A stretch of DNA of 57,696 nt from a virus (IMGVR_UViG_3300043493_000066:1-57696); one strand, 5' to 3'; positions 25,646 through 39,578 are shown, counted from the stretch's first letter. Translations and numbers: made by a program. The notes: generated by a model not told the origin, from the sequence alone.

Positions 25646-26262
25646 CAAAGCACCGCCAGGAACCGGTGGAAGTACGCCTCGCGCTCTCCGAGGCCGGTGA
25701 GGCCCCCGTTTAAACGACGTGTCTCGGCACGGATGTCCTCGTCGTCGTCCAGCGCATCCATGCCGTTCGCGCTCCAGTACCAGCACGACACCGCGGCGCC
25801 GATCGCGGGCTGGAGCATCAGATCGGGAGCGTCGTGCACGTAGTGCCCGGTTGCTTCCTGGGCGGCGAGGTAGTTCTTGGATCCGGTGAGCTGCACGGGC
25901 CCGCGGCCGCGGTACTTCCATCCGTCGCCCGAACCCTCGGGGCGGTTCCCCATGCGGCCGCCATAAACGAACTCGGCGAGCTTCTCGCCGTTCATCGCAT
26001 ACTCGTTCGCGTCGCGCTTGCCGTTGTACGGGACGCCGACGTAGAACCGGGTCGGCCACACGGCAACCAGGCGGCCCGACGAGTAGCCGAGGCGCTCCTC
26101 GAGCACGGTGAGCTCGCGGGATTCGGTCGCGACCATCGCGAGGAACGATGCCTCCTCGTTCTTCATGTCGATCGCGCGGCGCGGCATTTCGGCGAGCAAC
26201 GGCAGCAGCCACTCGATCGGCGCGCGCGTCATCACAGAGCGGATCCGCTCGAGCTTCGTCAC
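25645..26262 (-). CDS. Endolysin, glycoside hydrolase family 19-like (205 aa)
   Basis: EASFLAMVATES...YGGRMGNRPEGSGDGWKYRGRGPVQLTGSKNY. GTG 26262 has GAGGAG 6 nt upstream. Confidence 0.85.
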   Translation of the reverse strand: MTKLERIRSVMTRAPIEWLLPLLAEMPRRAIDMKNEEASFLAMVATESRELTVLEERLGYSSGRLVAVWPTRFYVGVPYNGKRDANEYAMNGEKLAEFVYGGRMGNRPEGSGDGWKYRGRGPVQLTGSKNYLAAQEATGHYVHDAPDLMLQPAIGAAVSCWYWSANGMDALDDDEDIRAETRRLNGGLTGLGEREAYFHRFLAVL

Positions 26263-26511
26263 CTGGCGCTCCTCGGGTTTGCTGCCGGCAGCAAAATCGG
26301 CCGGCGGGGAAAGGTTCTTGCCGGTTACAGCGTCCGGCGCCCTTGGGCGAGCTCGCAGGGCTGACTGCTGAATTGTCGTCGGCCGTCCCCTTCCAGTGGC
26401 AACCGACGTTTCAGCCCCAGGCGGCCGCCGCGAGCCGGCAACCCAACGATCTCAACTAGGAGGAGAAGAGCAAGCGCAAGCGAATGCCGGCGTGCAGCGA
26501 CTTCCCGGGAC

Positions 26512-26548
26512 GGAAAAAGAAAAGGGCCGGTCCATTTCTGGCCAGCCC
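26512..26548 (-). terminator. Rho-independent terminator in the late leader (GGGCTGG-loop-CCGGCCC + TTTTCTTTTT)
   Basis: Minus strand reads gggctggccagaaatggaccggcccttttctttttcc, about 45 nt downstream of the candidate late promoter. Confidence 0.6.
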
Positions 26549-26581
26549 TCCGTTTTCTCGGGGCGAACTGCCCCGGCGCGA

Positions 26582-26610
26582 ACCTTAGGACTTTCCTGAC
26601 GGCGTGTCAA
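26582..26610 (-). promoter_or_regulatory. Candidate late promoter TTGACA-N17-TAAGGT
   Basis: Minus strand reads tTTGACAcgccgtcaggaaagtccTAAGGT, immediately after the Q-like gene stop. Confidence 0.5.
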
Positions 26611-26622
26611 ATCCCGACCAAT

Positions 26623-27129
26623 TCACAAAGGTATTCCGCGGCGCTTCAAGACAGGGATCAGCGCCTGTTCGGCGCGATCCGCCAGGATGTCTGCCTGGAC
26701 GAGCGACAGGTGCTCGAGCTTCTTCATCCGGAACACGCGCACCGCGAATCCAGCGTCACGGCTCACGCCCTCGTTCAGGTAGCGCGCCCGCAGCGCCGCG
26801 CGCATCAGCTCGCCGTCCGGGAGCTCCATCAGGTCGTCGATCGAGGTGTCGATGATGTCGCGCGCCCAGCGATCGAGTCGCTCGTCGTAGTCCTGGCCGG
26901 TCGCATAGCCGTCGATCGTCCCGCGGATGCTGTCCAGGTACGGAACCCCCTCAGGCGCGCCGAGGTGCAGCCGGGTGGACATTTCATTGCGCGCCCACAT
27001 GACCAGGTATTCACGCAGGCGTTCGAGCTCGGCTTGCTCCTTTGTTCTCTCCGGCATGCCCTCCTCTGCCAGCCGGCGCAGGCGATCCCGCCCTTCGGCA
27101 CGCCGCTGCGTCATCGCCTCCTGTTCCAT
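26623..27129 (-). CDS. Putative late-gene regulator (antiterminator Q-like by position, 168 aa)
   Basis: Last gene of the early operon, followed by a promoter, short leader and terminator and then lysis genes. Sequence similarity to Q families is not established. Confidence 0.4.
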   Translation of the reverse strand: MEQEAMTQRRAEGRDRLRRLAEEGMPERTKEQAELERLREYLVMWARNEMSTRLHLGAPEGVPYLDSIRGTIDGYATGQDYDERLDRWARDIIDTSIDDLMELPDGELMRAALRARYLNEGVSRDAGFAVRVFRMKKLEHLSLVQADILADRAEQALIPVLKRRGIPL

Positions 27130-27160
27130 GTGGAACCTCGTTTCTTCTTATTCGAAGGCG

Positions 27161-27646
27161 CTACGGCCACGTCGCCGCTTCCTCGATCGCTGCGAAGATC
27201 GGCGCCGGCGGTGGAATGAACTCGTAGATCTCGATGATCAGCCCGCCCTTGCCCTGGGGCTCGCCGTACTCGATCGGCCCCTTGATTCTCTTGATCTGCG
27301 CGTCGTCGACGTAGGCGACGCCGTTCAGCGCATCGAATGTCACCTTCAGCGCGTTGTCGATGTTGATGACGACTCCGTTCTTCACCTCGACCATCACGCC
27401 GCTGCGCGGATCCTTGCGCTCGCGCGTCGCCGGCGGCACGAGCAGGATCGATCCGATCTCGACCGGCTTCGTCGACGGCTCCTTCAGGCCGGCTGCCCTC
27501 GCGGTCCAGCCGACGAGCGACTTGTAGGCGAGCGCCTCGTCCGAGACGGCGACGATCGCCGAATAGTGGTTCTGACCCTTGCGCCGTACAGCGAAGCTGC
27601 GCCAGTAGCGATTCGCGCTCACCGGGTATGGAAGGACGAGCTTCAT
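27161..27646 (-). CDS. rusA: RusA-family Holliday junction resolvase (161 aa)
   Basis: MKLVLPYPVSANRYWR... motif. Start set at ATG 27646. Confidence 0.85.
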   Translation of the reverse strand: MKLVLPYPVSANRYWRSFAVRRKGQNHYSAIVAVSDEALAYKSLVGWTARAAGLKEPSTKPVEIGSILLVPPATRERKDPRSGVMVEVKNGVVINIDNALKVTFDALNGVAYVDDAQIKRIKGPIEYGEPQGKGGLIIEIYEFIPPPAPIFAAIEEAATWP

Positions 27647-27795
27647 GCCGTGACGACCCAGGTGAAATCGCAAGCCACGCAGAACGCGCGCGCGCAGAAC
27701 AGATCCGGGAATTCATACTCGGCCGGCGGTTGCTTGCCAGCTGGAACGCGCACCAGGAAGGCGCCGCTCCTGCAGACGGTGATGAAGACCCTCAC
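27643..27795 (-). CDS. Possible 50-aa Cys-containing protein
   Basis: Hand translation: VRVFITVCRSG...FCARAFCVACDFTWVVTA. GTGA overlap with the ninB stop and ATGA overlap with the rusA start. Confidence 0.4.
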   Translation of the reverse strand: MRVFITVCRSGAFLVRVPAGKQPPAEYEFPDLFCARAFCVACDFTWVVTA

Positions 27796-28205
27796 GCCGC
27801 GTGCCTCTCTCGAGGATCGCTCAGCTGGATCCCGTGGTCGGCCGCCCAGGCCTCGATCTCGAGGCGGTACTCGTCGAACTGCGATGTGTCGAGCGTCGTC
27901 GTGGAGATCGGGCGGTTGAACACCTCGCCGTTCGGCAGCAGCACCTCTTCCTTGCCGATGAACTTCGCCTTGAAGTACTCGTGGTACGACTCGGCGGCGA
28001 AGCGCTTGCCCTCGACGGGCTGCGCGGAGATCTCGTGCAGGATCGCCCAGTAGCGCCGGTTCTGCTCGAGCGTGCGCGGCTTGCGGTACGGCCGCAGCAC
28101 GAGCTCCCAGTCGTCGCCCGCCTCGACCTGCACCATGCCGAGAATGGCGAGCGCGCGCTCCAGCTTCTCGCCGGAGTTGCCGATGTACCAGGAGCGCGCG
28201 TGCAT
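27792..28205 (-). CDS. ninB: NinB/Orf-family recombination mediator (137 aa)
   Basis: PRTLEQNRRYWAILHEIS motif. Confidence 0.75.
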   Translation of the reverse strand: MHARSWYIGNSGEKLERALAILGMVQVEAGDDWELVLRPYRKPRTLEQNRRYWAILHEISAQPVEGKRFAAESYHEYFKAKFIGKEEVLLPNGEVFNRPISTTTLDTSQFDEYRLEIEAWAADHGIQLSDPRERHAA

Positions 28206-28273
28206 CGCTCAGTGCTTCTGCGGAAAAGGCCAGCCGGCCGATGGATCGTAGGTCGTCATCACCCGCTGGCCCG

Positions 28274-28582
28274 CTACTCCCCCACTTCGTCGAACAGGAG
28301 CGCGAGCTGCGTGCACTCCCGCTTCTTCTCCTGGAAGTTCTCGCCGGCGCGCGCCACGACGAACCGGCGCACGACCGAGGCGAGCAGCCCCGAGTCCTCC
28401 GCCGTCTTCTTGATCGCGTTCGAGAAATCCTCCGAGGCCTCGTCGGCCTTGGTCTTCAGCCGCACGAGCTCGTCGATCCGCTCGTCGACGATTTGCGGCC
28501 GCTCGACCTGCTCCTGCTTGTCCGCGCCCTTACGCCCGCGCGGGGTCTTGTCGCTCTGCGTTCCTGGTGCCGTGCCACCCAT
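28274..28582 (-). CDS. Hypothetical protein (102 aa)
   Basis: ORF track. GAGGAGAA lies before the ATG. Confidence 0.6.
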   Translation of the reverse strand: MGGTAPGTQSDKTPRGRKGADKQEQVERPQIVDERIDELVRLKTKADEASEDFSNAIKKTAEDSGLLASVVRRFVVARAGENFQEKKRECTQLALLFDEVGE

Positions 28583-28612
28583 GATCGTTTCTCCTCGTTT
28601 AAACGCTGCTGT

Positions 28613-29131
28613 TTACGCTGCTGCCGTGGCCCACAACGGGACCGGGTTGGTGTGTCGATTGGGATCCGGTGAGTAACCGACCCGCACGATCACGCCCTCA
28701 CGCGCGGCGCGCTGGATAGGCGCCCCCCACGCTTTGGGATTCGATGGCTGCACGACGCCGGCGGCGATCGACGCCTGCACGATGTCGTGGCCGATGTACT
28801 GCTGCCCGCGATGCGCGATCGCGTAGCTCCTGATGAACTCGAACGCAGTGGTCGACCAGCCGGAGATCTCGCGATCGGCGCCGGCGGCCGCCTGGTCGAT
28901 GCCGGCCTGCGCCGCGCGCCTCGCGATCGCCGCGGCATTGAGCGAGACAAACTGCGTGGGGTTGAAGTCGCAGGCCTGCCGTTGCGAGTACAGCTTCCAC
29001 CGCGGACCGAAAGAGCAGCGGACGAACGAGCCGACGGTTATCGTGCCGTTCGCGCAGGATCCGCACGTCTGGGTCGAGCTCGCGGCCGCTGGCGCCGGCG
29101 TCTCATCTGAGAAGAGATCCCGCGCGCTCAC
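28613..29131 (-). CDS. Hypothetical protein (172 aa)
   Basis: ORF track. N-terminal Cys cluster CGSC...C...C. Confidence 0.6.
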   Translation of the reverse strand: MSARDLFSDETPAPAAASSTQTCGSCANGTITVGSFVRCSFGPRWKLYSQRQACDFNPTQFVSLNAAAIARRAAQAGIDQAAAGADREISGWSTTAFEFIRSYAIAHRGQQYIGHDIVQASIAAGVVQPSNPKAWGAPIQRAAREGVIVRVGYSPDPNRHTNPVPLWATAAA

Positions 29132-29724
29132 AGCGCCTTCTCGAGCAGCGGCATCGACTTGACTGCGATCGCGCGAAGGCGCTTGTCCATCGCATCGCCT
29201 TCGCGGTGATGCGGCAGCAATCGCTGCGCGGCGTCTGCGCTGATGCGCCCCTTCTCCGCGGCCTCGAGGATCGCGATCTCGCGCGCGTTCTTGTCCGTGC
29301 CCGGGCTGATCTCCCAGGTCACCGGTTCGCGCGCATCACGCGCCTGCTGCACCAGGATGCGATAGCGCTCGATGAACGCCATGCGGGCAGGAACCTCGTC
29401 GCCGTGCTCGAGCAACGCGCGCGCCGCGCCGTACGCCATGCGCATTTCAGGCGTCCAGAACGTCGTGGCGGCTTCGTCACGCGGGATCATCGACCAGGCT
29501 TCCTCGGGCCCGGGCCGGCCGTCGTCAATCCGCGAGAGCACGTCGGCGAGCGTGAGCCTGCTCTTCAGCTCGCGACAGCAACGCTTGAGCGCGCCGAGGA
29601 CCTGGTCCTCCGGATACGCGGCTAGATCTGCGAGCATCGCCTTGACGGCGCCGTCCGACAGCTGCGTGTTCGTGAGCTCGAGCGTGACGCCGATCGCCTT
29701 GATCAGGTTCGCGCTCGCCTTCAT
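29128..29724 (-). CDS. Replication-associated protein, possibly helicase-loader-like (198 aa)
   Basis: Weak resemblance to G39P-type loader proteins (AVKAMLADLAAYPEDQVLGALKRC), and position after the DUF1376 gene. Confidence 0.35.
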   Translation of the reverse strand: MKASANLIKAIGVTLELTNTQLSDGAVKAMLADLAAYPEDQVLGALKRCCRELKSRLTLADVLSRIDDGRPGPEEAWSMIPRDEAATTFWTPEMRMAYGAARALLEHGDEVPARMAFIERYRILVQQARDAREPVTWEISPGTDKNAREIAILEAAEKGRISADAAQRLLPHHREGDAMDKRLRAIAVKSMPLLEKAL

Positions 29725-29921
29725 GCCTCAACCTTCCGAAGCAGCAGCCCCTTCGAGTCCAGATCGCCGGCGGCCATCACCGCGGCCGTGTGGCACGCGC
29801 GAAAATATCCCGGGTCGACCAGGCCACCGGACGAGCTCGCGAGACGTTCGGCGCGCCGGCTCAGGTCCTGGAGCTGCTCGATCAGTTCCGTGAGCTCCGT
29901 TGCAACCGCGTTCCGGCTCAT
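29721..29921 (-). CDS. Hypothetical protein (66 aa)
   Basis: ORF track. Has 4-nt overlaps on both sides. Confidence 0.5.
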   Translation of the reverse strand: MSRNAVATELTELIEQLQDLSRRAERLASSSGGLVDPGYFRACHTAAVMAAGDLDSKGLLLRKVEA

Positions 29922-30829
29922 GCGGTCCGCCTCGACTCAGCCAGCAGCCGCTCGACCTGGTCACCGGTGGTTGCCGTGCGATCCGCCTGGCGGGCCGAGG
30001 TCTCGGTGACCTTGGACCCGGTCGCCCACTCGGTGCGCAGGCCCTCGGCGTCGCGCAGCAGCAGGTCGACGCAATGCCGGGCGGAGTTGTAGAGCTGCTT
30101 GTTGTGCCCGACGTAGAACGCGGCTACCGCCGGCGCCTCGTCGTGGGGAACCCGGCCGACGAAGTGGGCGAGCATCCCGTTGACCTTGGCATTCCGCAGC
30201 GGCTCCACGCCGTAGCGCTGACGGTAGGCGGCGCTGTAGGCCTGCCACGTTTCGGCCGCGGCCCGGCGCGCAGCGTCGGAAAGGGTTTGGGGTTTGCTTT
30301 TCTGTCCCTGTCCCTCTCCATATCCCTTTCCCTTTCCCTCTCCCTGTCCCTTGGAGCCTGTTACATCCGCCAGCAGTGCCTGTAACTGCTCCTGTAACAG
30401 CCTCCGTTCCTCGTCTGTGGTTGCCTTCTCGATCTTCTTGCGGATGGCGGCGACGCGCGCGGCATGCGTGCGTGCCCGTTGCTCGAGCTTTCCCTTCCAG
30501 GCCTCGATCGCCTTCTCCGCGACGACCGGGTGATACAGCCGCCCATCCGAGCAGCGCACCCAGCCGCGCAGCGCGTGGTCGCGCATCTTCGGCCAGCGCG
30601 TGCCGGCCTGCGACAGGTGGGCGAGCACGCGATCGTTGTCGGGCAGGCTTGCCGCCGGCACCTGGTGCCAGCTCTCGCACCAGAGCGCGAGCGCGGCGAG
30701 CTTCTCCTCGGGCTTGCCGAGCAGCCACGTCTCCGAGGTGAAGAGCCGCCGGAACTCGAGCGGGATGAAGCCGAAGTTGCGGAGATCGCACTCCGGCGGG
30801 ACGAGCGGGATCGGCAGAACTTCCGTCAT
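29918..30829 (-). CDS. DUF1376 (YdaU-like) replication-module protein (303 aa)
   Basis: Start MTEVLPIPL at ATG 30829 (ATGA overlap). FGFIPLEFRRLFTSETW...EEKLAALALWCESWHQVPAASLPDND. G/K/E/Q low-complexity linker. Confidence 0.7.
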   Translation of the reverse strand: MTEVLPIPLVPPECDLRNFGFIPLEFRRLFTSETWLLGKPEEKLAALALWCESWHQVPAASLPDNDRVLAHLSQAGTRWPKMRDHALRGWVRCSDGRLYHPVVAEKAIEAWKGKLEQRARTHAARVAAIRKKIEKATTDEERRLLQEQLQALLADVTGSKGQGEGKGKGYGEGQGQKSKPQTLSDAARRAAAETWQAYSAAYRQRYGVEPLRNAKVNGMLAHFVGRVPHDEAPAVAAFYVGHNKQLYNSARHCVDLLLRDAEGLRTEWATGSKVTETSARQADRTATTGDQVERLLAESRRTA

Positions 30830-32769
30830 GCGACCAACCTCAGCGGGGTTCGCTCTTCGTTCGCGGCCGGCCTCACGCGCTCGAGCAGCAACCACTCGGG
30901 CGGGACGGCTCGCAGGAATTTCGGTGCCTTCCAGTAGCGGCGCGCGCAGGCCTTCACCTGCCGCCGGCTGTAGCGAGCTCCCAGGTGCGAGCGCCGCAGA
31001 CGCAGCTCACCGCGGTGATGCCAGTTCTGGATCGTCGACGTCGAGACGCCGGCGAGCGCGGCCGCGGGCCCGAGGAAGATCCAGGCGTCGGTGAAGTTCT
31101 CGTGCTTGATCGGCTTACGCTTGACCCTACGCAGCCGCTCGAGCATCGGCGCCGTGATGTAGACGCGGCGTCCATCCCACTTCGCGCGCTGCACGCGGAT
31201 CGTGCCGTCCAGGATCCGCTCCTTGATCCAGGAGCGCGTCGTCCGAACGGCTGCAGCCGCTTCCTCGATCGTGTAGCCCTCGCGCGACTCGATGCGCTTG
31301 ATGACCGCGTTCACGGTGTCGAGCGGAATGCCGCTAGCCCCCCGCCAGTTCACGCCCTCGAGTAGCTTGCGAAATCTCGCCACAGTGACGCGCGCGCGCC
31401 GCGCGCCCTCCTGCAACGAGTAGCCGAGCTTCTGCCGCAGCATCGCCACCTGGTTGCGCAGGACGTACGTGATCCCGCGCATCGGCCCGTTCGTTCCGAG
31501 CTTCGAGCGCAGCGCGCCGTCCTTGATATACCCGAGCAGCTCGACGCGTTTGAACTCGTGCATTTGGCACGCGGCCGCCACCGACAGCCACGACTTCTGA
31601 TCGCCACCGCCTGGACACCGGCGCGCCTTCCAGCGTGTCGCATCGGTCCGCGTCACGTACCAGGTGACACCGACGCGCGTCGCCGGCAGCGTGCCGTTCA
31701 TGATGGCGAGCCGTACGCCGCCCCAGCTGCGGCTGCAGAGCTTCGCGACTTCCTTCATCGTGAGGCCCGGGCTCCACTTGCGCGTCAAGTGACGCTTCGC
31801 GCCGTGCGCGAGCGGCGGGTATCGCACCGCGTAGTCGTCGTACGTCCGCGGCGCTCCCTCCGGGCCCCAGATCTGCGCGCACGTCTTGCACGAGGTCGGA
31901 TGCCGGCGCTCCTCGAGCAGCTTCCAGGTCACCTGCAGATTGCCGGGCTCGGGCTTCCCCCACCAGGGCATCGGCTTGCCGAGGCGCCGATCGCGAACCA
32001 GCTGCGCCGCCACGGCTCGATCGACGTACCAGCTGCCGAACTTCGTATTTTTCGCACGCGTGCCGTACGGATTGCAGCGCAGTGCCGTCGGCATGTAGCC
32101 CATGCGCGCCCACTCCGAGAGCTTGTCGCTGCGGATCCCGAGCGGCTTCTTCAGCGTGCTCAGCTGGACGTAACCCTTCGGCGGGAAGACCCGCGACGCC
32201 TTCCACGCGCTCCATGCAGCGTGAGGGATGATCCACATCTTCCCGATGCGAAATGCACGGAGCTCGCGGCGCTCGATCGCCTGCCATGCGATCGCGTAGG
32301 AGCCGATCTCCCGGCCGGCCTTGGCGAGCGTGATTCCACCGCAGACATCGGAATGCAGGAGTCCTAGCTTGTGCTGCATCGCTATCAACACGCCCCAGCG
32401 CGTTCGCTTCGCGCGACGGTCGCCGGTCTTCTCGCGCAGCCGCTTCGTCAGGATCTTCGCGATCGCGTCCGTCGAAAAGCGGCCGACCAGCGTCGCAAGG
32501 AATGCGAGCTCCGGCGCCTGCCATTCGTAGCCGCTTGCGGTTCCTGACCTGCGCGGCAGCGGCCACTCGTCATCGCGCGGCGCTCGGCCCTGCCACAACG
32601 AGAAGAGCTCCGCGAAGTGCTTAATCTTCCCGAGCCTGGTGCATGCTCGCGTTCGGCGCACGCGATCGATCTCGTGGCTCGACTTACCGAGCACCGCGGC
32701 CAGGTCGTAGAGCCAGGCGCGCCAGCCGTGCGCGAGGACGAAACGCTCCCAGTCGAGCGAGCGGCTCAC
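30826..32769 (-). CDS. Protein built of ~6-7 tandem excisionase/MerR-type winged-HTH repeats (647 aa)
   Basis: GTG 32769 (GTGA overlap). Repeats such as LTMKEVAKLCSRSWGGVRLAIMNGTLPATRVGVTWYVTRTDATRWK recur along the protein. Confidence 0.6.
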   Translation of the reverse strand: MSRSLDWERFVLAHGWRAWLYDLAAVLGKSSHEIDRVRRTRACTRLGKIKHFAELFSLWQGRAPRDDEWPLPRRSGTASGYEWQAPELAFLATLVGRFSTDAIAKILTKRLREKTGDRRAKRTRWGVLIAMQHKLGLLHSDVCGGITLAKAGREIGSYAIAWQAIERRELRAFRIGKMWIIPHAAWSAWKASRVFPPKGYVQLSTLKKPLGIRSDKLSEWARMGYMPTALRCNPYGTRAKNTKFGSWYVDRAVAAQLVRDRRLGKPMPWWGKPEPGNLQVTWKLLEERRHPTSCKTCAQIWGPEGAPRTYDDYAVRYPPLAHGAKRHLTRKWSPGLTMKEVAKLCSRSWGGVRLAIMNGTLPATRVGVTWYVTRTDATRWKARRCPGGGDQKSWLSVAAACQMHEFKRVELLGYIKDGALRSKLGTNGPMRGITYVLRNQVAMLRQKLGYSLQEGARRARVTVARFRKLLEGVNWRGASGIPLDTVNAVIKRIESREGYTIEEAAAAVRTTRSWIKERILDGTIRVQRAKWDGRRVYITAPMLERLRRVKRKPIKHENFTDAWIFLGPAAALAGVSTSTIQNWHHRGELRLRRSHLGARYSRRQVKACARRYWKAPKFLRAVPPEWLLLERVRPAANEERTPLRLVA

Positions 32770-33152
32770 GGGACAACGATCCTCCGCTCCCACGGCGCCG
32801 GATCCGGCACGCCGTGCATCACGACGAACGCGTGGATCGCGCCCTCGGCATTGAGCGACGGCTGCAGCGCCCACACGCCAGGCGCGATGCGATCGGCGCC
32901 GAAGGCCTGCAGGCAGCCCTCTTCGTCCAGCCGCATGCGCTCCTCGATCGGGATCGGGAACGGTGCGAACTCAGGACCGAGGAGCAGCACGGTTACGCCG
33001 CCGGCGACGCCGCACACGAGCTCGTCCTCCCCGAGCGGCACCGCCGGGATCTCCTTCCAGCGGAAGAAGAGCTGGCAGATAGGCAGGCTCGGGTCACCAA
33101 ACTCTCGAGCGGCGTTTGCGCACCAGGCGGAGACCTGCGCGGCGGTCTTCAC
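32766..33152 (-). CDS. Distant DUF6527-like paralog d (128 aa)
   Basis: GTGA overlap. C-terminal LQPSLNAEGAIHAFVVMHGV parallels HPSINYEGRYHGYLKSGV. Confidence 0.45.
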   Translation of the reverse strand: MKTAAQVSAWCANAAREFGDPSLPICQLFFRWKEIPAVPLGEDELVCGVAGGVTVLLLGPEFAPFPIPIEERMRLDEEGCLQAFGADRIAPGVWALQPSLNAEGAIHAFVVMHGVPDPAPWERRIVVP

Positions 33153-34093
33153 GCGCGCGTCTCGAGCTCGTCCTGCAGCGCTCGCGCGCCGGAGAGCATC
33201 TGCTGCGACGAAAGGCCGGCGACGGCGCCGAGCAGTGCCACGACCGGATCGGTGAGCGCGCGCAGCCGCGGCGTCGGCGTCTCGCGCATCGCGCGGTCCC
33301 ACTGGCTGAAGCTCGTGGGCAGCTTCGGCTTGCTCGCCTTCGCCTTTGGCGCCACGCGTTTCAACTCCCGGGCCATAGGCATGCGCACCTTCTCGACGCC
33401 TCGGCGGCTGAAGCAGAAAAACTCGCCTGGCGCCAGCGCGGCCAGATCGTTGAACTCGATCCTCGAGGAGCGGAACTGCGGCGCGAGCGCGGCCCAGGCT
33501 GTCGGATCCTCCTGGCAGCCGATCAGCGACAGGTTCTTGTTCGCGAAGATCGATCGATGCAGCGAGCCGGTGAAGCGCGTCGCGGTCAGGAACAGATCCA
33601 GCGCGCGCTTGCGGCCGCGCTCGGCGAACTGGTTGACGATGTCGGCCGCCTCGCCGATGTCGCCCTTCCTCTTCTTCGGCGCGCTGAACACCTGGCCCTC
33701 GTCGATCATGACGAAGATCGGTTTGCGATGCCGGTCTGCGGCCTCGAGGATCGCGCGGCCGTACGGGATGAACTCGCCGGCATCCTCGGCCGACACGACC
33801 AGGAACGGCTTGTCGCGCTTCTGCAGGCGCTCGCGCAGCGCATCGACGCTGGCGACCGCGGGCCCGTACATCGACGCGATCTCGCCCTCGGGGTCGACCA
33901 GGACGCAGACCCAGCCCTGCTCCGCGAGCTGCTCGGCGATCAAGAGGCCCGCGTTCGTCTTGCCGATCCCGCTCGGGCCCACCGTGACGATCCGCAGGCC
34001 AGTCGTCGCGTACTCCGAAAGATCGATCGCCACGCTGCCCAGGTCGAGCACCGCGCCCAGGAGCACGTCCCGCTGGATGACGGCGCGCGTCAC
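33149..34093 (-). CDS. P-loop NTPase, HerA/FtsK-like (314 aa)
   Basis: Walker A VGPSGIGKTN and Walker B IFVMIDEGQ. Confidence 0.7.
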   Translation of the reverse strand: MTRAVIQRDVLLGAVLDLGSVAIDLSEYATTGLRIVTVGPSGIGKTNAGLLIAEQLAEQGWVCVLVDPEGEIASMYGPAVASVDALRERLQKRDKPFLVVSAEDAGEFIPYGRAILEAADRHRKPIFVMIDEGQVFSAPKKRKGDIGEAADIVNQFAERGRKRALDLFLTATRFTGSLHRSIFANKNLSLIGCQEDPTAWAALAPQFRSSRIEFNDLAALAPGEFFCFSRRGVEKVRMPMARELKRVAPKAKASKPKLPTSFSQWDRAMRETPTPRLRALTDPVVALLGAVAGLSSQQMLSGARALQDELETRA

Positions 34094-34488
34094 TCGTCGC
34101 TCTCCTTCGCGCGCAGCAGCACGTCGTGTAAACGCAGGACCTGCTGGGAGCTCAAGGAAAAGACGACCGCGAAGTCGTCGATCACCTGCTTCGTGATCGC
34201 CTCGAGCGTGCCCTTGCCCCGCGCGATCGCGACGAGCTTGCGCAGGCTCGACCAGTCATGACCGCCGGCCGGCATGACCTGCGAGTCGCCGATCTCCGAG
34301 TAGAGCTGCTCCATCGTGTGCGGTGTCTCTTCTGGCCCGAGGTCGGATGCCAGGCGCTCATTCAAGACGTCGAGCAGCTGCTGCGCCGGCATGTAGCCAT
34401 GCACCTTTCGGATCAGAGACTTCTCCGCCGGCGTGAACGCGCGCGGGACTTCGCGCAGCAGCCGGACGGTTCTGAGCGTCGCGTTCAC
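34090..34488 (-). CDS. Hypothetical protein (132 aa)
   Basis: ORF track. Has 4-nt overlaps on both sides. Confidence 0.6.
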   Translation of the reverse strand: MNATLRTVRLLREVPRAFTPAEKSLIRKVHGYMPAQQLLDVLNERLASDLGPEETPHTMEQLYSEIGDSQVMPAGGHDWSSLRKLVAIARGKGTLEAITKQVIDDFAVVFSLSSQQVLRLHDVLLRAKESDE

Positions 34489-36050
34489 TTGCTCTTCTTC
34501 TGCTTCGCGGCCGCGCGTGCCAGCGCCGCCGCCTTCTTCCGCTCTTGGATGATCAGCTCGCGCGTCTTGCCCTCGCTGATGCCGAAGAGCTTCAGGACGC
34601 CATCGCGGGAGTACGGGCTGACGGCGAAGATCAGGTGGAACGCGAAGAGAACGAGATCTCGCTCGCTCAGCTTCGCCACCTGCGCCGGCAGCTTGGAGCC
34701 GTAGCCGCGGCTCGAGAACGCGTTCTTCGGCCAGCCCCAGGCCTTCGCCACTGCGTCGTCATTGCGCAGGCTGCCGAGGTGCTCGTACATTTCCTTCACC
34801 AGGTCGACGAGCCACTTCCGGCTGAACTGCTTCGGCGCGTTCTTGTGGATCAGCTCCGCGAGCCGGTCGGTGAGCATTTCGTCGACGTCGGGGCCTTTCG
34901 GCGCTCTCGACTTGGCGGCCGCGCGCGCGCGAACGGTCGCGCCGGGCTGCTGCGACGCCTTCGCAACAGCCTGCTGCGTGGCGATCTCGTGGATCTTGCC
35001 GCTCTGCGGGTGCTGCACGAGCATCGGCTCGTAGTCGGCGCTGAGCAGATCCTTGACCTTGCAGTCGCGGCCGCTCGCATAGGTGGTGTCGTTCAGCGCG
35101 ACGTAACCGCCGGCGAGGCTCGTGCTGCCGTTCTTCCAATGCGGGAACACCTTCTTCGCCGCGTCGCCGTGCACGACCTTCTTGCCCTTCGCCTCGAGGC
35201 GCTTGCGATCGCCGGCGTAGTGCGCCTGGCGCTTGTCGTCGAAGCACTTCGGGTCAGTGCAGACGTCTCCACTCTTCACGTCGCCGAAGAGCTCGCGCTG
35301 GTTGCCGGTGCGCTTCGGACAGGCCTGGCAGGATCCGGCCTTCGGGAGGAGCGCCGCATCGTTGATGTCGAATGGCGCCTCCTTCAGCCGGAGCATGTAC
35401 TCGTTCTGGATGTGCTCGAGCGCCTCGCGGTACGACATCGGCCCTTCGTAGCCGTTGTCCTGCGTGATGTCCTTCAGCGCCTGGCGCTGCGTATCGTGGT
35501 GACCGATGCGCGCGACCAGGAGCGCGCGCGATGCATCGAGCGTGCCGGCGTAGAACGCCTTCCTCGCCTCCGGGCAGAGCGCGAGCAGCTTCGTGCGTTT
35601 AAACACGTAGCTGCGGCTGCGACCGACCATGTCCGCCACAGCGTCGGCCGAGATCTTCTTCAGCTTCATCAGCTCTTCGTAGCCCTCGGCCTCCTCGAGC
35701 TCGTGCAGGCCTTCGCGCTGCAGGTTCTCGATCAGCTGCACCTCGAGCACCTGCTCATCGGAGAGATCCGCGACGCTAGCCGGGATCTCGGCGAGGCCGG
35801 CGATCTTGGCCGCGAGCCATCGCCGTTCGCCGGCGACGAGTTCGTGGCGATCCGGTCCGCGCGGCCGCACGACGATCGGCTGGAGTACTCCGACCTGGCG
35901 GATGCTGGAGGCGAGCTCCTCGAGCAGCTTCTTGTCGAAGCGCTCGCGACGAAGCTCCTGGATGTGGGTCTTGCTGGGCGCGATCGCCGCGATCGCGATG
36001 AACTTGCTCACCGGCGCAGCGAGCGCCGCCATGCTTGCGGGTGCGTTCAT
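34485..36050 (-). CDS. ParB/Srx N-terminal domain protein (521 aa)
   Basis: GVLQPIVVRP....ELVAGERRWLAAKIAG..EIPA and LIENLQREGL. Central Cys cluster CQACPKRTGNQ...CTDPKC. Confidence 0.8.
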   Translation of the reverse strand: MNAPASMAALAAPVSKFIAIAAIAPSKTHIQELRRERFDKKLLEELASSIRQVGVLQPIVVRPRGPDRHELVAGERRWLAAKIAGLAEIPASVADLSDEQVLEVQLIENLQREGLHELEEAEGYEELMKLKKISADAVADMVGRSRSYVFKRTKLLALCPEARKAFYAGTLDASRALLVARIGHHDTQRQALKDITQDNGYEGPMSYREALEHIQNEYMLRLKEAPFDINDAALLPKAGSCQACPKRTGNQRELFGDVKSGDVCTDPKCFDDKRQAHYAGDRKRLEAKGKKVVHGDAAKKVFPHWKNGSTSLAGGYVALNDTTYASGRDCKVKDLLSADYEPMLVQHPQSGKIHEIATQQAVAKASQQPGATVRARAAAKSRAPKGPDVDEMLTDRLAELIHKNAPKQFSRKWLVDLVKEMYEHLGSLRNDDAVAKAWGWPKNAFSSRGYGSKLPAQVAKLSERDLVLFAFHLIFAVSPYSRDGVLKLFGISEGKTRELIIQERKKAAALARAAAKQKKSK

Positions 36051-36172
36051 ATCTCCTCGGAGTTGTGATCCGCCGCCGGCGCGGGCGCGGCAAAGCGATC
36101 ACCGCGGATAGCGTCAGGCTCGGCCGAAGCCCGGCCAGCGGCAGTCTTGAATTGGTTCAATGCCAGGTACAC
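36047..36172 (-). CDS. Possible 41-aa ORF (GTG start)
   Basis: Hand translation: VYLALNQFKTAAGRASAEPDAIRGDRF... Its stop overlaps the ParB-like ATG, and GGGAGGGG lies upstream. Confidence 0.25.
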   Translation of the reverse strand: MYLALNQFKTAAGRASAEPDAIRGDRFAAPAPAADHNSEEI

Positions 36173-36230
36173 GTACGCCGACCCCTCCCGATCCTGCGTT
36201 GCCCGCCGGCGCGATCGCGCGGCGGTATTG

Positions 36231-36662
36231 CTACGGTTTCGCTGTTACAAGCCCTTCGAGGTATTGCAACCGCTCTTCTGCCTTGTCGGCCCGCGCGCGC
36301 TCAATCAGCAGCTGCCGCTCGGCTTCCGAGAGCAATAAGTGCAGGCCTTTGCCGCGACGCCACGCCCACCAGGTCAGGACGATGTCGTTGCCGCAGAGCT
36401 CGCCCAGCTGCTCCAGCTTGTTCGTAGGGAAGTGGACCTCGCCCTTTCGCATGCGCGACCAGTGCGACGACTCGATCTTGAGCGACAGGTAGAGATCCTT
36501 CTCGTCCTGGCCGGAGACGTTGATCTGCAGGTTGATCGCATCGAGCAGCGTCTTGCACGCACGGATCACGTCGTCCGAGACCGGCTGCGGCCGCGGCGCC
36601 TTGATGAGCGGCAGTTCCCCCTGAGCAGCAACGGCATGCAAATTCTTTGCTTGTTGTTGCAT
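36231..36662 (-). CDS. CII-like regulatory protein (143 aa)
   Basis: SHWSRMRKGEVHFPTNKLEQLGELCGNDIVLTWWA resembles Phage_CP76/CII-type regulators. Position is downstream of the Cro-like gene. Confidence 0.4.
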   Translation of the reverse strand: MQQQAKNLHAVAAQGELPLIKAPRPQPVSDDVIRACKTLLDAINLQINVSGQDEKDLYLSLKIESSHWSRMRKGEVHFPTNKLEQLGELCGNDIVLTWWAWRRGKGLHLLLSEAERQLLIERARADKAEERLQYLEGLVTAKP

Positions 36663-36786
36663 GTGAACTCAGGGCAAAAAAAGGGAGACTGGCGCCATGC
36701 GCACGTTCGCAGTCGCCGATGGGCACGAAAGCCCCCGTGGGAGAATCGACGTCGCCAGACGACCAACCCTTTCCACGGAGGCTTTC

Positions 36787-37201
36787 ATGCACGTAATCAC
36801 GGACGCCGTCGACAACGGCGCCACAGTTCTGCTCGTTCTCCGCGACAACGACACCGGCAAGCTCTCGCAGTTCACGCTGGCATCGACGCACTTCGTCAAA
36901 GCCGCCCCGCGGCTCGCACAAATCGCCATTGCGATGCGACACAACAAGATGGTTGGCGGGGCCGAGCGGACCGGCGAGTACAGGGGCATCGCCGTCTGCG
37001 TTGCGGGCGCGATCAAAGTTGACCCCGACCTGCTGGTATCGCCGCCTGGAGGTTCGATTGACATTCGATCCAGGCCGGCCCGAGGAAGTCTGCTTTGCGC
37101 TCTCGCCCGACTTAGCGCGGCGGGTGGCGGAGGGCATTGCGTCCACTCTCCGGTCACTGGATCAACCCGGAACCACGCCTTCCGGTACTTCGGCGCATTG
37201 A
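36787..37201 (+). CDS. Opposite-strand gene with unresolved 3' end (possible +1 frame change near 37036-37060)
   Basis: GGAGG lies 5 nt before ATG 36787. Composition is natural and GC3 high to about 37035 (MHVITDAVDNGATVLLVLRDND...). After that the neighbouring frame looks coding (..RRLEVRLTFDPGRPEEVCFALSPDLARRV..) and stops at 37201. Confidence 0.35.
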
Positions 37202-37291
37202 TGCGTTCGACGGCGGCTAGTGCCAGGCCACACGGGACGCCGATCGCCGGAAGAGCGATCAGCCCCGGCAAGGCGAGGAACGTGCGGCGAT

Positions 37292-37486
37292 TCAAGCGGC
37301 CCTCGCTTCCTGTGAACGGAAGAACTCAGCGAGTTTCTCGATGTGGCTAACGCCAGGGTCTTCGATCTCCCTGCGCGCGATCTTCTCGACGGTGCGCTTC
37401 GCAACGCCGGATCCGTCGGCGACTTCTTGATAGGTCAGTGGAGTCGAAACGAGCTGCCGGATGACGTACTCGTGCATGGATTCCAT
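37292..37486 (-). CDS. Cro-like HTH regulator (64 aa)
   Basis: LTYQEVADGSGVAKRTVEKIARRE HTH. The start is set downstream of the -10 element, because the track start at 37507 lies inside the operator and upstream of the -10. Confidence 0.6.
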   Translation of the reverse strand: MESMHEYVIRQLVSTPLTYQEVADGSGVAKRTVEKIARREIEDPGVSHIEKLAEFFRSQEARAA

Positions 37487-37494
37487 GCTGAGAA

Positions 37495-37523
37495 ATCCTA
37501 GACCCATACTTGGGTTTCGTCAA
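37495..37523 (-). promoter_or_regulatory. PR-like early promoter TTGACG-N17-TAGGAT
   Basis: Minus strand reads TTGACGaaacccaagtatgggtcTAGGAT. ATG 37486 begins 9 nt after the -10, so the mRNA is near-leaderless. Confidence 0.5.
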
Positions 37524-37536
37524 CCCACTAATGGGT
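37502..37536. promoter_or_regulatory. Operator pair ACCCA-N4-TGGGT (37502-37515 and 37523-37536), centres 21 bp apart
   Basis: acccatacttgggt and (ca)acccactaatgggt(tg) lie between the divergent Cro-like and CI-like genes. Confidence 0.65.
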
Positions 37537-37562
37537 TGGGCGGCGATCTAGACTTTAACGTG

Positions 37563-37919
37563 ATGAAAGGACAAAAGAAAACGCCGAAGATTCCAGGCTT
37601 CATGCGCACGATCATGGCGCAGAATCTTCAGAAGCTTCTCGATCACCACTATCGCGCGTTGCCCAATATCACGAAGAAGCAGCATGCGCTCGCTAAGGAT
37701 TCGGGCGTCCGGTTCTCCACCATCCAGCGAGCGTGCAAGGCGGAGAATGGGCCGACGCTTGACACAATAGAGGCGATCGCCGCGGCCGTTGACCTATCCG
37801 CCTATCAGATCCTCATCCCATCGCTCGAGGTCGGCAACCCCCAAGTGGTCAAAGGCGCGACGAAGGAGGAAGAGCGGATGTACCGCAACTGGAAGCGAAT
37901 GAAGGTGACGACGGAGTAG
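37563..37919 (+). CDS. CI-like XRE-family repressor without peptidase domain (118 aa)
   Basis: HTH KQHALAKDSGVRFSTIQRACKAENGPTLDTIEAIA. Divergent from the Cro-like gene. The start choice at ATG 37563 is tentative. Confidence 0.65.
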   Translation: MKGQKKTPKIPGFMRTIMAQNLQKLLDHHYRALPNITKKQHALAKDSGVRFSTIQRACKAENGPTLDTIEAIAAAVDLSAYQILIPSLEVGNPQVVKGATKEEERMYRNWKRMKVTTE

Positions 37920-37922
37920 GCC

Positions 37923-38195
37923 TTGGGCCACCTGATATTCATCGTCTTGCACCTCATCGCCGTAGCGTTCGGAGCGGTGTTGCTGGTGATCACCATCCCG
38001 CTGCACCTGATCTATGGCGCGGCATCTGGCAAGAAGCAACCCGACGAAGCCGACGAGCTCCAGCGCGGCTTCCTGCGCAAGTGCCCGCAGTGCGCCGAGG
38101 CGGTCAAACGCGAGGCCCTGAAGTGCAAGCACTGCGGCGCCCAGCTGCCAGCGCTGCGCCAGCTGAACGCCTGGGAGAAGATCTTCGGTGAGTAG
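37923..38195 (+). CDS. Membrane protein with C-terminal zinc ribbon (90 aa)
   Basis: TM segment LIFIVLHLIAVAFGAVLLVITIPL, then CPQC...CKHC. TTG start. Lies directly downstream of the CI-like gene. Confidence 0.55.
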   Translation: MGHLIFIVLHLIAVAFGAVLLVITIPLHLIYGAASGKKQPDEADELQRGFLRKCPQCAEAVKREALKCKHCGAQLPALRQLNAWEKIFGE

Positions 38196-38469
38196 AGCGC
38201 TGGCGGCCCTGCTCGGGCTGCTCGCGCTCACGATCGACGCCGGCGCCGCGCAGCGTAGCAGTAAGGCGCGGATCGAGTTCCTCCGCAGCAACCCCTGCCC
38301 TTCAACTGACAAGACCCGCGGGCCCTGCCCTGGCTATGTGATCGACCACGTCCGTCCCCTGTGTGCTGGTGGTGAGGATCGGCCAGCCAACATGCAATGG
38401 CAGACGATCGCGGCCGCGAAGGAAAAGGACCGCGCCGAGCGGGAAAGTTGTAGAACTAGGCGGCAATAG
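38188..38469 (+). CDS. Secreted small HNH/His-Me finger-like protein (93 aa)
   Basis: Signal peptide MSRALAALLGLLALTIDAGAA, and GYVIDHVRPLCAGGEDRPANMQWQT. Confidence 0.6.
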   Translation: MSRALAALLGLLALTIDAGAAQRSSKARIEFLRSNPCPSTDKTRGPCPGYVIDHVRPLCAGGEDRPANMQWQTIAAAKEKDRAERESCRTRRQ

Positions 38470-38545
38470 CTGCTGGGCACACGGTTATAGAACCGAGTTA
38501 TCCACCGATAGGAATCCGCCAGTGAAACAATAGCTTCCTGCCTCA

Positions 38546-38580
38546 ACCCATCTTTGGGTTGACAAGACCCATTATTGGGT
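38546..38580. promoter_or_regulatory. Second operator pair ACCCA-N4-TGGGT (38546-38559 and 38567-38580), centres 21 bp apart
   Basis: (ca)acccatctttgggt(tg) and acccattattgggt have the same architecture as the 37502-37536 pair. Confidence 0.65.
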
Positions 38581-38587
38581 TTACGCT
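38559..38587 (+). promoter_or_regulatory. PL-like early promoter TTGACA-N17-TACGCT
   Basis: TTGACAagacccattattgggttTACGCT has an operator inside the spacer. It lies upstream of the plus-strand early operon. Confidence 0.5.
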
Positions 38588-38622
38588 TTTTGCCGTCTCT
38601 GGAATAACGGCAGGAGGCGAGT

Positions 38623-38913
38623 GTGGAGCAAGGCAAGCATCCCAACGACAGACCGCGCGGCACCTTCGAGGTCAATCTCGTGCCGGCCGGGAAGTCGACC
38701 ATCGTCGTCGACGGCTTCGAGATCTCGGGCATCTGTACCGGTATCTCGATCAAGCATCAGTGTGGCGCATCGATCCCGGTCATGCAGCTCGAGCTCATCG
38801 CTGCACACCGGCTCGCCGGCAAAGGCGAAGCGGAGATCGAAGTCTTCCTGCAGGAGTGCCCTGACTCAGTAGCGCGAGCGCTCCTCGCGTCGCTGCAGCA
38901 GAGGTTCGCATGA
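38623..38913 (+). CDS. Hypothetical early protein (96 aa)
   Basis: ORF track. GTG start after GGAGG. Confidence 0.6.
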   Translation: MEQGKHPNDRPRGTFEVNLVPAGKSTIVVDGFEISGICTGISIKHQCGASIPVMQLELIAAHRLAGKGEAEIEVFLQECPDSVARALLASLQQRFA

Positions 38914-39110
38914 GCGCCGGCCGCGAGTTCTTCGGTCCGACCATCCAAGTCGGCCCCGGCGACATCGGCGAGCCGTATCCAGATGACGACGAGGGATGCC
39001 CGGAATGCGGCGCCGATCTCGAGTTCGCCGGTGCCCTGCTTTCCTGCTCCGTTTGCGACTGGGACGCGAGCTGCGAATGCACGGTCGAGGAAGAACTGGC
39101 CTTCCGATGA
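38910..39110 (+). CDS. Small zinc-ribbon protein (66 aa)
   Basis: CPECG...CSVCDW..C.C. Confidence 0.55.
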   Translation: MSAGREFFGPTIQVGPGDIGEPYPDDDEGCPECGADLEFAGALLSCSVCDWDASCECTVEEELAFR

Positions 39111-39265
39111 CAACCCTGCCGAACGACTACGCGAGCAAAGAATGGCTGCGGCCAGTTCGTCCGCCCCTGCGCAGACGCATGTTCAACGCTGCTGTGCGCG
39201 TCGGGATCTTCGTGACGCTCTTCGTGGCTGGGTTCCTGATGATGCACCCGAAGCTCCTGCCGTGA
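39107..39265 (+). CDS. Small TM protein (52 aa)
   Basis: ATGA overlap. Sequence VRVGIFVTLFVAGFLMM. Confidence 0.45.
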   Translation: MTTLPNDYASKEWLRPVRPPLRRRMFNAAVRVGIFVTLFVAGFLMMHPKLLP

Positions 39266-39402
39266 GCGACGACGAAGTGATCCAGCGCACTCGGGAATGG
39301 ATAGCCGAGAACAGAGCGCGGCCGCGGCAGGAGTTCGTCGCCGCGGTCCTCGTCATTGTCGGCCTGGCGATCACCGTCGGGCTTTTCCTGGTGTTCCGAT
39401 GA
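39262..39402 (+). CDS. Small TM protein (46 aa)
   Basis: GTGA overlap. Sequence FVAAVLVIVGLAITVGLFLVF. Confidence 0.45.
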   Translation: MSDDEVIQRTREWIAENRARPRQEFVAAVLVIVGLAITVGLFLVFR

Positions 39403-39578
39403 GGCTGCCGCGTTCCATCCTGGATCGGGCGTTCGAATACACGCCGAGCGCGAAGACCGATCTCAAGCGCACGTTTAAACGCATTCGCCGCGAGCATCTC
39501 GAGGACCAGCAGCGCGACGCGGCGAACGCGCAGGAAGCGCAGGACAAGGTCAAGCAACTCAAGGGGACGAAGACGTGA
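39399..39578 (+). CDS. Small basic protein (59 aa)
   Basis: ATGA overlap. Sequence MRLPRSILDRAFEYTPSAKTDLKRTFKRIRRE. Confidence 0.5.
   Translation: MRLPRSILDRAFEYTPSAKTDLKRTFKRIRREHLEDQQRDAANAQEAQDKVKQLKGTKT

Follow-up and report, generated by a model that had tools for sequence, protein, structure and literature searches.

The DNA analysed here is a viral sequence of 57,696 nucleotides (IMGVR_UViG_3300043493_000066:1-57696; hereafter the window, meaning this whole stretch), which represents a temperate tailed phage or prophage, as genes for a portal protein, a major head protein and a tape measure protein are present. Our subject is a gene in its long leftward early operon, gene C, together with two genes upstream of it, A and B, with which gene C forms a small cassette that recurs in other mobile elements. 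The genes of the cassette, including one optional member, are as follows.

30826-32769, minus strand: gene C, 647 amino acids (aa), isoelectric point (pI) 11.07, net charge +73, a predicted multi-winged-helix protein
32766-33152, minus strand: optional fourth gene, 128 aa, between B and C, with GTGA overlaps on both sides
33149-34093, minus strand: gene B, 314 aa, a putative FtsK/HerA-type P-loop ATPase, upstream of C
34090-34488, minus strand: gene A, 132 aa, the first gene of the cassette

The module array of protein C

The initial annotation had placed a 647-aa open reading frame (ORF) at these coordinates of gene C, and the coding pattern, the conserved relatives and an analysis of the start site all bear this out. 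The longest minus-strand ORF, at 30826-32874, encodes 682 aa and constitutes an alternative reading. Homologues of C, however, start about seven residues ahead of a conserved DW motif (residues 6-7 of C), and the GTG codon at 32769 overlaps the stop codon of the preceding ORF as GTGA. Because both the homologue starts and this overlap fit a start at 32769, the 647-aa form was accepted. The codon-position GC pattern of the gene is typical of coding DNA (GC content at third positions 0.83).

Database searches yielded 448 relatives of C at E <= 1e-3, the best 120 of which are about 625-690 aa in length and share 52-65% identity with C over 94-100% of its length, with the exception of one 570-aa entry that is covered to 77%. 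An exhaustive profile search collected 272 clusters at 50% identity, about 40 of them full length and the rest mostly fragments. Searches of the PDB with the single sequence and with a profile returned nothing. By tblastn, C has no match in 50,697 GenBank phage records, so that the cassette has probably escaped experimental attention; full-text literature searches for tandem HTH_17 domains with FtsK/HerA likewise retrieved no account of it.

The AlphaFold2 model of C supplied the boundaries at which we cut the chain into modules S1-S10 and a tail.

32350-32769, minus strand: S1 (residues 1-62) and S2 (residues 63-140), two N-terminal modules, each made up of three or four helices, with no Pfam match
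32182-32349, minus strand: S3 (residues 141-196), canonical HTH_17-type winged helix-turn-helix (HTH)
31972-32181, minus strand: S4 (residues 197-266), assigned as a winged helix from its predicted fold only; the wing loop is long
31771-31971, minus strand: S5 (residues 267-333), helical module, four helices in the AlphaFold2 model, with no Pfam match
31606-31770, minus strand: S6 (residues 334-388), best HTH_17/excisionase match
31423-31605, minus strand: S7 (residues 389-449), winged helix by predicted fold only
31279-31422, minus strand: S8 (residues 450-497), helix-turn-helix with a degenerate wing and hints of HTH_3 and SelB-wing_1
31102-31278, minus strand: S9 (residues 498-556), canonical HTH_17-type winged helix-turn-helix (HTH_17 E 4e-3)
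30910-31101, minus strand: S10 (residues 557-620), MerR/HTH_17-type winged helix-turn-helix
30829-30909, minus strand: C-terminal tail, poorly conserved, following S10

Profiles run against the whole protein reveal a repeated domain of the excisionase class. Pfam HTH_17 (PF12728) scores 39.8 bits against a cut-off of 27 (E 5.5e-10), distributed over four stretches, and TIGR01764 'excise' (excisionase family DNA-binding) scores 38.4 bits against a cut-off of 28.8; the PHROGs matches are to excisionase and MerR-like families. The strongest of these stretches is S6, which is matched by HTH_17 at residues 336-383 and by TIGR01764 at residues 336-382, and which gives E 1.5e-4 in a segment scan. When the segments are scanned singly, HTH_17 or MerR matches are found in S3, S6, S9 and S10, with the single modules falling below the HTH_17 gathering score (22.4, 17.7, 16.9 and 13.4 bits). 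S10 matches MerR at E 3.7e-5, MerR_1 above its cut-off and HTH_17 at E 8e-3.

Comparison of the modules with one another leads to the same set. Alignment of their sub-alignments by hhalign is in register for S3-S6 (97%), S6-S9 (96%), S8-S9 (86%), S6-S10 (65%) and S3-S9 (58%); S8-S6 reaches 53% and S7-S6 only 21%. A hidden Markov model (HMM) seeded on S6 had, after a single iteration, recruited both S3 and S9 in all 56 homologues; by iteration 6, all 56 had yielded S10 as well. Recruitment of S8 was marginal (17 of the 56, E 1e-3 to 0.1), and S4 and S7 were never recruited. As HTH_17 units by sequence, S4 and S7 failed in hhalign, in the iterated HMM and in Pfam, and their designation as winged helices derives from AlphaFold2 topology.

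The AlphaFold2 model, computed from the 56-sequence alignment with a mean predicted local distance difference test (pLDDT) score of 85.1, contains the beta-alpha-alpha-beta-beta-alpha topology seven times, in S3, S4, S6, S7, S8 (with its degenerate wing), S9 and S10. In S7, for example, the strands occupy residues 394-396, 422-424 and 434-437, and the helices residues 397-404, 408-416 and 438-448. Foldseek searches of the PDB with this predicted model, in which the matching module is not specified, return single domains of Pukovnik Xis (4j2n), BldC (6amk/6ama) and RacA (5i44) with a probability of ~1.00, root-mean-square deviations of 1.6-2.0 A over ~47 residues and target TM-scores (TMt) of 0.66-0.73. 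Weaker matches are obtained to TraN (4p0z/4pm3; probability 0.69-0.75, TMt ~0.35) and to MerR regulators, and a viral structure library contributes excisionases, PrtN, MerR-like HTH proteins and a few multi-HTH phage proteins. No full-length structural analogue of C was found by Foldseek in the PDB, where there are loose matches to the multi-winged-helix proteins UFL1 and TFIIH. As modelled, C is thus one chain with about seven Xis/BldC-type winged helix-turn-helix modules, of which four are recognisable by sequence and all seven by predicted fold.

The initial annotation had regarded C as composed almost entirely of tandem excisionase/MerR-type winged-HTH repeats, with at least six segments fitting the HTH_17 pattern, and had proposed domain parsing and an AlphaFold model as checks. 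Repeated HTH_17 units are indeed found by Pfam, TIGR01764 and the segment scans, and the four peptides that it had quoted as examples correspond to S3, S6, S9 and S10, every one of which matches HTH_17 or MerR. The count of at least six is upheld at the level of the fold, where the model displays seven units, and is too high by sequence, which supports four. Similarly, C consists largely of such repeats, and 'almost entirely' is a slight overstatement, as ~207 of its 647 residues (S1, S2 and S5) belong to other helical modules. Among these, S5 contains the invariant residues H290, C294, C297 and H327 and the motif GAKRHLTR, and may bind metal. S2 weakly resembles the first conserved, N-terminal segment of gene A (hhalign 29%, in register).

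Protein C contains 125 lysine and arginine residues against 52 aspartate and glutamate residues, and the median pI of its family is 10.7. Every module carries a net positive charge, from +5 to +11, and it is therefore plausible that the chain reads or wraps a long stretch of DNA; DNA binding as such is predicted from sequence. The idea of an array of DNA-binding modules in one chain, with which the initial annotation had begun, holds good in the form of a covalent Xis/MerR-type array. Conservation is distributed unevenly along this array. The most conserved modules of the family are S4, S5 and S8, with S4 highest (0.78) and its second helix (KLSEfARm) nearly fixed (0.89), and the least conserved helices are the second ('recognition') helices of S3, S6, S9 and S10 (0.56-0.59). 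From this pattern we infer that variable DNA readers may be attached to a conserved partner-binding core.

Relatives of C have lost modules at the same boundaries, with S6-S8, S6-S7, S6 alone or S9 alone missing. In relatives of ~475 aa, S1-S5 is joined straight to S9-S10; relative P0170 reads S1-S2, S9, S9, S10, and relative P0222 carries the S4-S5 unit in three copies. S1 and S2 are kept in nearly all variants, short ones included, and more distant proteins of 600-660 aa have only S1-S3 in common with C and possess HTH_17 repeats of their own that are stronger. By these sequence comparisons, the modules of C are evolutionary units. The relatives P0222, P0170, P0150, P0140, P0131 and P0136 constitute a natural series of arrays of different length, and some of the module-shuffled relatives are possibly artefacts of metagenome assembly.

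The A-B-C cassette, its partner proteins and its carriers

The neighbourhood of gene C was compared with 38 loci from genomes, plasmids and metagenomes and with 19 IMG/VR viral contigs. The order A-B-C is kept, with the same tight spacing, in ~33 of 35 genome, plasmid and metagenome loci and in 17 of the 19 viral contigs, and a homologue of B (57-90% identity) precedes C in essentially every locus for which upstream sequence is available. The exceptions are contig ends, an element truncated beside an integrase (L005/L006) and one locus in which gene A was undetected (L054). The genes flanking the cassette are unrelated from locus to locus. Thus, A, B and C form a conserved three-gene cassette, translationally coupled by start/stop overlaps.

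In the window, the early operon reads, in the direction of transcription, a 145-aa ORF, a ParB-like gene, gene A, gene B, the 128-aa ORF, gene C, a DUF1376 gene, several small ORFs and NinB. Five consecutive junctions in this operon are 4-nt GTGA or ATGA overlaps, and these include the overlap of the gene C stop with the DUF1376 start (ATGA). The following genes of the operon and of the remaining window bear on the interpretation of the cassette.

34485-36050, minus strand: ParB-like protein, 521 aa, with a ParB_N domain, best matches to PRTRC-system ParB and Noc models, and a GTGA overlap with gene A
29918-30829, minus strand: DUF1376 gene, directly after gene C, with replication, primosomal and O-like signatures
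27792-28205: NinB
20212-21912: large terminase
45674-47476, plus strand: second, larger HerA-type ATPase, 600 aa (Pfam DUF87; phrog_2666, E 7e-19), just upstream of the integrase
47856-49094, plus strand: integrase, 15 kb from gene C
49521-50363, minus strand: Mom-family protein

Protein B has the motifs of a P-loop ATPase, with GPSGIGKT as Walker A and IFVMIDEGQ as Walker B, followed by ERGRKRALDL. Its profile matches comprise a weak one to Pfam AAA_22, a PHROGs family labelled terminase large subunit (E 2e-5), PADLOC mad8 (E 8e-12, covering positions 29-296 of 314) and, below threshold, the NCBIfam model of the DNA-translocating ATPase CedD; one JGI record names a homologue 'HerA-like ATPase'. 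A profile search of the PDB gave P-loop noise only, with MinD/ParA insignificant (E 0.7-0.9). When the AlphaFold2 model of B is submitted to Foldseek, the top matches are the FtsK-like coupling protein TcpA, the packaging ATPase B204 of STIV2, EssC/EccC and HerA (E 1e-6 to 3e-5). B thus exhibits a Walker A motif, a Walker B motif, a basic G-R-K segment and, in the predicted model, a superposable RecA-like core, all of them features of the FtsK/HerA superfamily. It also aligns, motifs included, with the DUF87 protein encoded elsewhere in the window (23% over 233 aa), which by this alignment is a distant paralogue of B. We conclude with moderate confidence that B is a minimal FtsK/HerA-type ATPase, which may form a hexameric DNA-translocating ring.

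Gene A is longer in other elements (173-190 aa), and in two loci, L001 (8489-9061) and L002 (8500-9063), it starts with two CxxC pairs, which could form a zinc ribbon. Its C-terminal 115 aa are conserved at 44-78% identity directly upstream of B in ~50 loci, and the protein has no match in Pfam, PHROG, the PDB or PADLOC. The 128-aa ORF between B and C has homologues (34-68% identity) at the same position in L029, L039, L041 and L049, but most cassettes lack it; searches of PADLOC, NCBIfam and the PDB gave no match for it. A 178-aa form of this ORF (32766-33302) was rejected as too long, the real gene being the 128-aa form that starts from the GTG at 33152.

The cassette is found in the early regions of phages and among the accessory genes of plasmids and of integrative and conjugative elements (ICEs). 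Its carriers include an IncP-type Azospira plasmid of 397 kb, a Variovorax plasmid, a B. cenocepacia plasmid with an ICE-type backbone (ParB, PFL_4669, DUF3158, ssb, PcfJ and topoisomerase) and a Chromobacterium contig with relaxase, KorA and TelA genes; pTY921B of B. cenocepacia and pAZI09 of Azospira are examples of carrier plasmids. Most hosts belong to the Burkholderiales or to other Betaproteobacteria, and a few are Gamma- or Alphaproteobacteria. The genes that follow C vary and encode, among others, a methyltransferase, an AAA protein, an Xre/ParS-C protein, an aminotransferase or an ICE PFL_4669 protein. The DUF1376 protein of the window was absent from all 36 genome, plasmid and metagenome loci compared and from all 19 viral contigs, and its ParB was found in two viral loci only (L046 and L056). 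A census of the flanks in genomes is populated by N6 methylases, Toprim/DUF3991 primases, DUF7694, PLD nucleases and PAPS reductases, and that in viral contigs by ParB_N (5 of 14 loci), integrases, reverse transcriptases, DUF5131, ArdC, Mom, DnaB, RdgC and YqaJ. Integrases are only occasional neighbours of the cassette in the other loci. In other elements, the surroundings of the cassette repeatedly include genes for ParB_N, Mom, ArdC, DUF5131, PAPS reductase and orphan methylases.

Possible functions of the cassette

Single domains of the Xis/BldC type act on DNA in multiple copies. Several copies of BldC (PMC5859096) or of RdfS (PMC11963761) are lined up head to tail on DNA, with RdfS forming a helical polymer. 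The canonical modules of C share the fold and the sequence family of the Xis/BldC/RacA class, and a covalent array of them would mimic this line-up. Members of that class, however, are single domains of 50-100 aa that assemble into non-covalent oligomers, whereas C combines about seven copies with three other modules, and its gene is tied to an ATPase rather than situated beside an integrase or attachment (att) site. The modules of C belong to the HTH_17/excisionase winged-helix class; the architecture of the array is unusual, and the cassette was previously unrecognised.

Two functions suggested by this class assignment were considered and rejected. C is not an excisionase (recombination directionality factor), because with 647 aa and about ten modules it greatly exceeds the ~50-100 aa of such proteins and because no integrase is adjacent, the one in the window being 15 kb off. 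Nor is it a classical MerR regulator, because it has neither a long coiled coil (its longest helix spans 16 residues) nor an effector domain, and because MerR and MerR_1 match only the HTH part of S10.

We tentatively favour, with a confidence that falls somewhat short of even, a reading in which C is the DNA-reading and DNA-wrapping subunit of a mobile-element DNA motor module encoded by the A-B-C cassette. The canonical modules S3, S6, S9 and S10, and perhaps S7 and S8, would lie side by side on ~70-100 bp of DNA, as a covalent version of the head-to-tail filaments that are built by the single-domain proteins BldC, Xis and RdfS. The variable recognition helices would direct the array to an element-specific target or, alternatively, allow readout of DNA shape, and the conserved S4-S5(-S8) core, together with the N-terminal modules, would hold the partners A and B. 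C would in this way mark a DNA site and load or anchor the ATPase ring of B there. In this phage, the cassette would be expressed from the early leftward operon.

A fuller version of this scheme, which we regard as possible and at the same time doubtful, holds that A-B-C is an undescribed three-component DNA motor, in which C reads or wraps element-specific DNA and loads a minimal FtsK/HerA-type ring ATPase, and which, exchanged between phages, plasmids and ICEs, helps establishment of the element or excludes its rivals. For the favoured reading as such, candidate purposes would be the establishment or protection of incoming DNA, DNA processing together with the ParB-like protein and modification genes, or the exclusion of rivals. 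The repertoire of flanking genes points to establishment or conflict functions.

Several known machines provide an analogy for such a motor. The gamma winged helix of FtsK reads KOPS, Streptomyces TraB reads clt repeats, and the small-terminase ring presents many HTH domains to the packaging ATPase. In each of these systems, as might be the case for the cassette, several winged-helix or HTH units recognise short motifs, repeated or skewed, and so guide a ring ATPase to the DNA. There, the reader either forms part of the motor protein as one of its domains or is a homo-oligomeric ring, whereas the reader of the cassette would be a monomeric chain in its own right, built from diverged modules. 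The phage, moreover, possesses its own terminase at 20212-21912.

A number of observations weigh against the motor reading. The link between C and B is one of gene order alone. The predicted template modelling score (pTM) of the C model is 0.52, such that the arrangement of its modules in space is not reliable, and the winged-helix fold of S4 and S7 is a prediction only. The model of B is of moderate confidence (pLDDT 68), the RecA, RadA, KaiC and DnaB folds also match it, albeit 10-100 times more weakly, and B has no Pfam FtsK or DUF87 match of its own. With respect to a DNA target, no iteron or tandem-repeat cluster was detected in or beside gene C by a repeat finder, Tandem Repeats Finder (TRF) and k-mer clustering, applied to positions 26000-40000 and to the whole window; no repeat cluster recurs beside the cassette in 33 other loci scanned, and no motif is common to the loci upstream of gene A.

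C could instead be a stand-alone transcriptional or architectural regulator of the early genes of mobile elements, amounting to a 'polymerised' BldC, Xis or TraN, with the ATPase performing a separate job. We consider this unlikely, notwithstanding the structural matches of C to BldC, Xis, RacA, TraN and viral HTH proteins and the location of its gene in an early operon, downstream of operator-like palindromes. TraN, in which two excisionase-like HTH units are present in one chain, is the closest described multi-copy case among the structural matches; it differs from C in having two units rather than seven, a length of 120 aa, an origin in Firmicutes, no ATPase partner and no sequence relationship to C. 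The characterised proteins with this domain have regulatory or architectural functions, as is true of BldC (PMC5859096), RdfS (PMC11963761) and the TraN protein of pIP501, a monomeric DNA-binding regulator on a mobile element (PMC10877727). What a plain regulator would not be expected to do is to travel with an ATPase conserved at 57-90%, and the A-B-C arrangement with its overlapping codons is kept in ~50 loci despite their unrelated flanks, with no fixed target operon or promoter adjoining it.

Another improbable alternative, which overlaps the motor reading in the role envisaged, is that the cassette is defence or counter-defence cargo, with C sensing, coating or shielding DNA and the HerA-like ATPase acting as effector or remodeller. 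The cassette moves between unrelated elements, and its neighbours are those of anti-restriction or leading regions (orphan methyltransferases, ArdC, Mom, PLD nucleases, PAPS reductase, DUF5131, ParB-like proteins and conjugative primases). Furthermore, B matches PADLOC Mad8, and Mad1, a small HTH protein, is matched (E 8e-4) by the last module of C. Both profiles are from the defence system MADS, in which Mad6-8 are mandatory components (bioRxiv 10.1101/2023.03.30.534895). The Mad8 match, however, mainly identifies the class of the ATPase, because remote PDB homologues were used to build the PADLOC profiles. With three genes rather than eight, the cassette includes no methyltransferase, specificity subunit, kinase, Mad6 or Mad7. 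As a MADS it was rejected, in that it offers only a Mad8-like B and a weak Mad1 match for C, with no PADLOC match for A, most of C, the ParB-like protein or the inserted ORF. A defence role is further disfavoured by the fact that the cassette itself encodes no nuclease, toxin or methylase and is translationally chained to replication and recombination genes in this phage.

The ParB-like gene raises the question of a non-canonical partition or DNA-positioning system, in which C would bind the centromere and B would serve as the motor, with a ParB-like protein participating in some elements. A ParB_N-domain gene lies directly upstream of the cassette in the window, joined to it by a GTGA overlap, and such a gene is likewise found close to the cassette in the B. 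cenocepacia plasmid and in 5 of 14 viral loci; RacA, a structural match of C, anchors chromosomes. We nevertheless judge this proposal to be quite improbable. B has the classical Walker A sequence GPSGIGKT and a HerA/FtsK-like fold rather than the deviant ParA motif, the cassette is also carried by prophages that integrate and therefore do not require partition, as indicated in the window by the integrase, no centromere-like repeats were found in the window or in the 33 other loci, and ParB is missing from most loci. The more specific candidate of a ParABS system was rejected, as B carries the classical GxxGxGKT and not KGGxxK[ST] and no centromere repeats were found.

Very little probability remains for the role put forward in the initial annotation, that of an iteron-binding replication initiator which recognises the phage origin and acts there jointly with the DUF1376 protein. 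Tandem winged helices are indeed found in iteron-binding initiators, among them RepA/Rep_3, lambda O and Vibrio RctB, the last of which is near C in overall size, and gene C does occupy the slot upstream of the DUF1376 gene in the replication region of the window, where the stop codon of the one overlaps the start of the other. This adjacency, however, is repeated in none of ~55 other loci, the cassette resides on plasmids and ICEs that have their own replicons, the matches to phage replication, primosomal and O-like families belong to the DUF1376 protein itself, and the search for iterons that the initial annotation had proposed found no cluster in or near gene C and none recurrent in the 33 other loci. 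C is thus not an initiator of the Rep, O or RctB families: none of their profiles matches it (Pfam, PHROG, NCBIfam, PDB), no iterons were found, and its linkage to replication genes is not conserved.

With about seven hard-wired units and a natural set of variants in which units are added or dropped, C would be a tractable model for the recognition of long DNA by arrays of weak readers. The array could also serve as a modular DNA-binding scaffold. Because the cassette resides amid anti-restriction and establishment genes, it is a candidate for a new function in the establishment of mobile elements or in conflict between them.

Repeats, palindromes and other features of the window

The initial annotation had also connected C with the palindrome CGTTTAAACG, and this sequence is indeed over-represented in the phage. 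Six exact copies lie in the window, at 14181, 16616, 25707, 28596, 39472 and 51521, and with one mismatch allowed there are nine against ~0.6 expected, the extra sites being at 8939, 34125 and 35596. All eight occurrences of TTTAAA in the 57.7-kb window fall within GTTTAAAC. In 618 kb comprising the 38 genome, plasmid and metagenome cassette loci (the 19 viral loci were not covered), however, the palindrome has no copy at all; it was therefore rejected as a target of the cassette and is a property of this phage. Judged by coordinates, several copies coincide with gene boundaries or lie close to them; one falls between an ORF that ends at 28582 and another that starts at 28613, and one precedes the ORF at 39479 by 7 nt.

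Isolated repeat clusters are present 3-6 kb downstream of the cassette in three other loci, L028 (15009-15298), L029 (15680-15920) and L037 (12842-13005), with ATCCACGG-type repeats occurring six to seven times in L028 and L029. In the third of these loci, on the B. cenocepacia plasmid, GTCCGGACA occurs six times between DUF3158 and ssb. The other loci scanned show none of these repeats.

Upstream of the early operon, four exact copies of the operator-like palindrome ACCCA-N4-TGGGT are arranged in two pairs (37502-37536 and 38546-38580), the members of each being 21 bp apart, where 0.46 would be expected by chance (one mismatch allowed in the count). The pairs flank small divergent genes at ~37805-38195, and this region is probably the repressor/Cro switch (immunity region) that governs the operon containing gene C. 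Inside the DUF1376 gene, 8.3 copies of the hexamer CTGTCC (30302-30351) encode a Gly-rich GxGxG linker, which separates the N-terminal DUF1376 domain from a C-terminal part that matches O-like initiator families (phrog_391 and phrog_11527). The repeat could be a mere linker, or it could represent origin-like repeats within an initiator gene, as in lambda O.

Ahead of the DUF87 ATPase, the genes at 43412-44314 and 44212-44622 comprise a DUF5131 (Gp37/Gp68) gene and a gene resembling those of RecA-dependent nucleases. The top TRF score in the window is that of a 24-bp tandem repeat at 18056-18145 (3.8 copies, 80% matches), which is located inside an ORF at 17997-18914, between the major head and portal genes.

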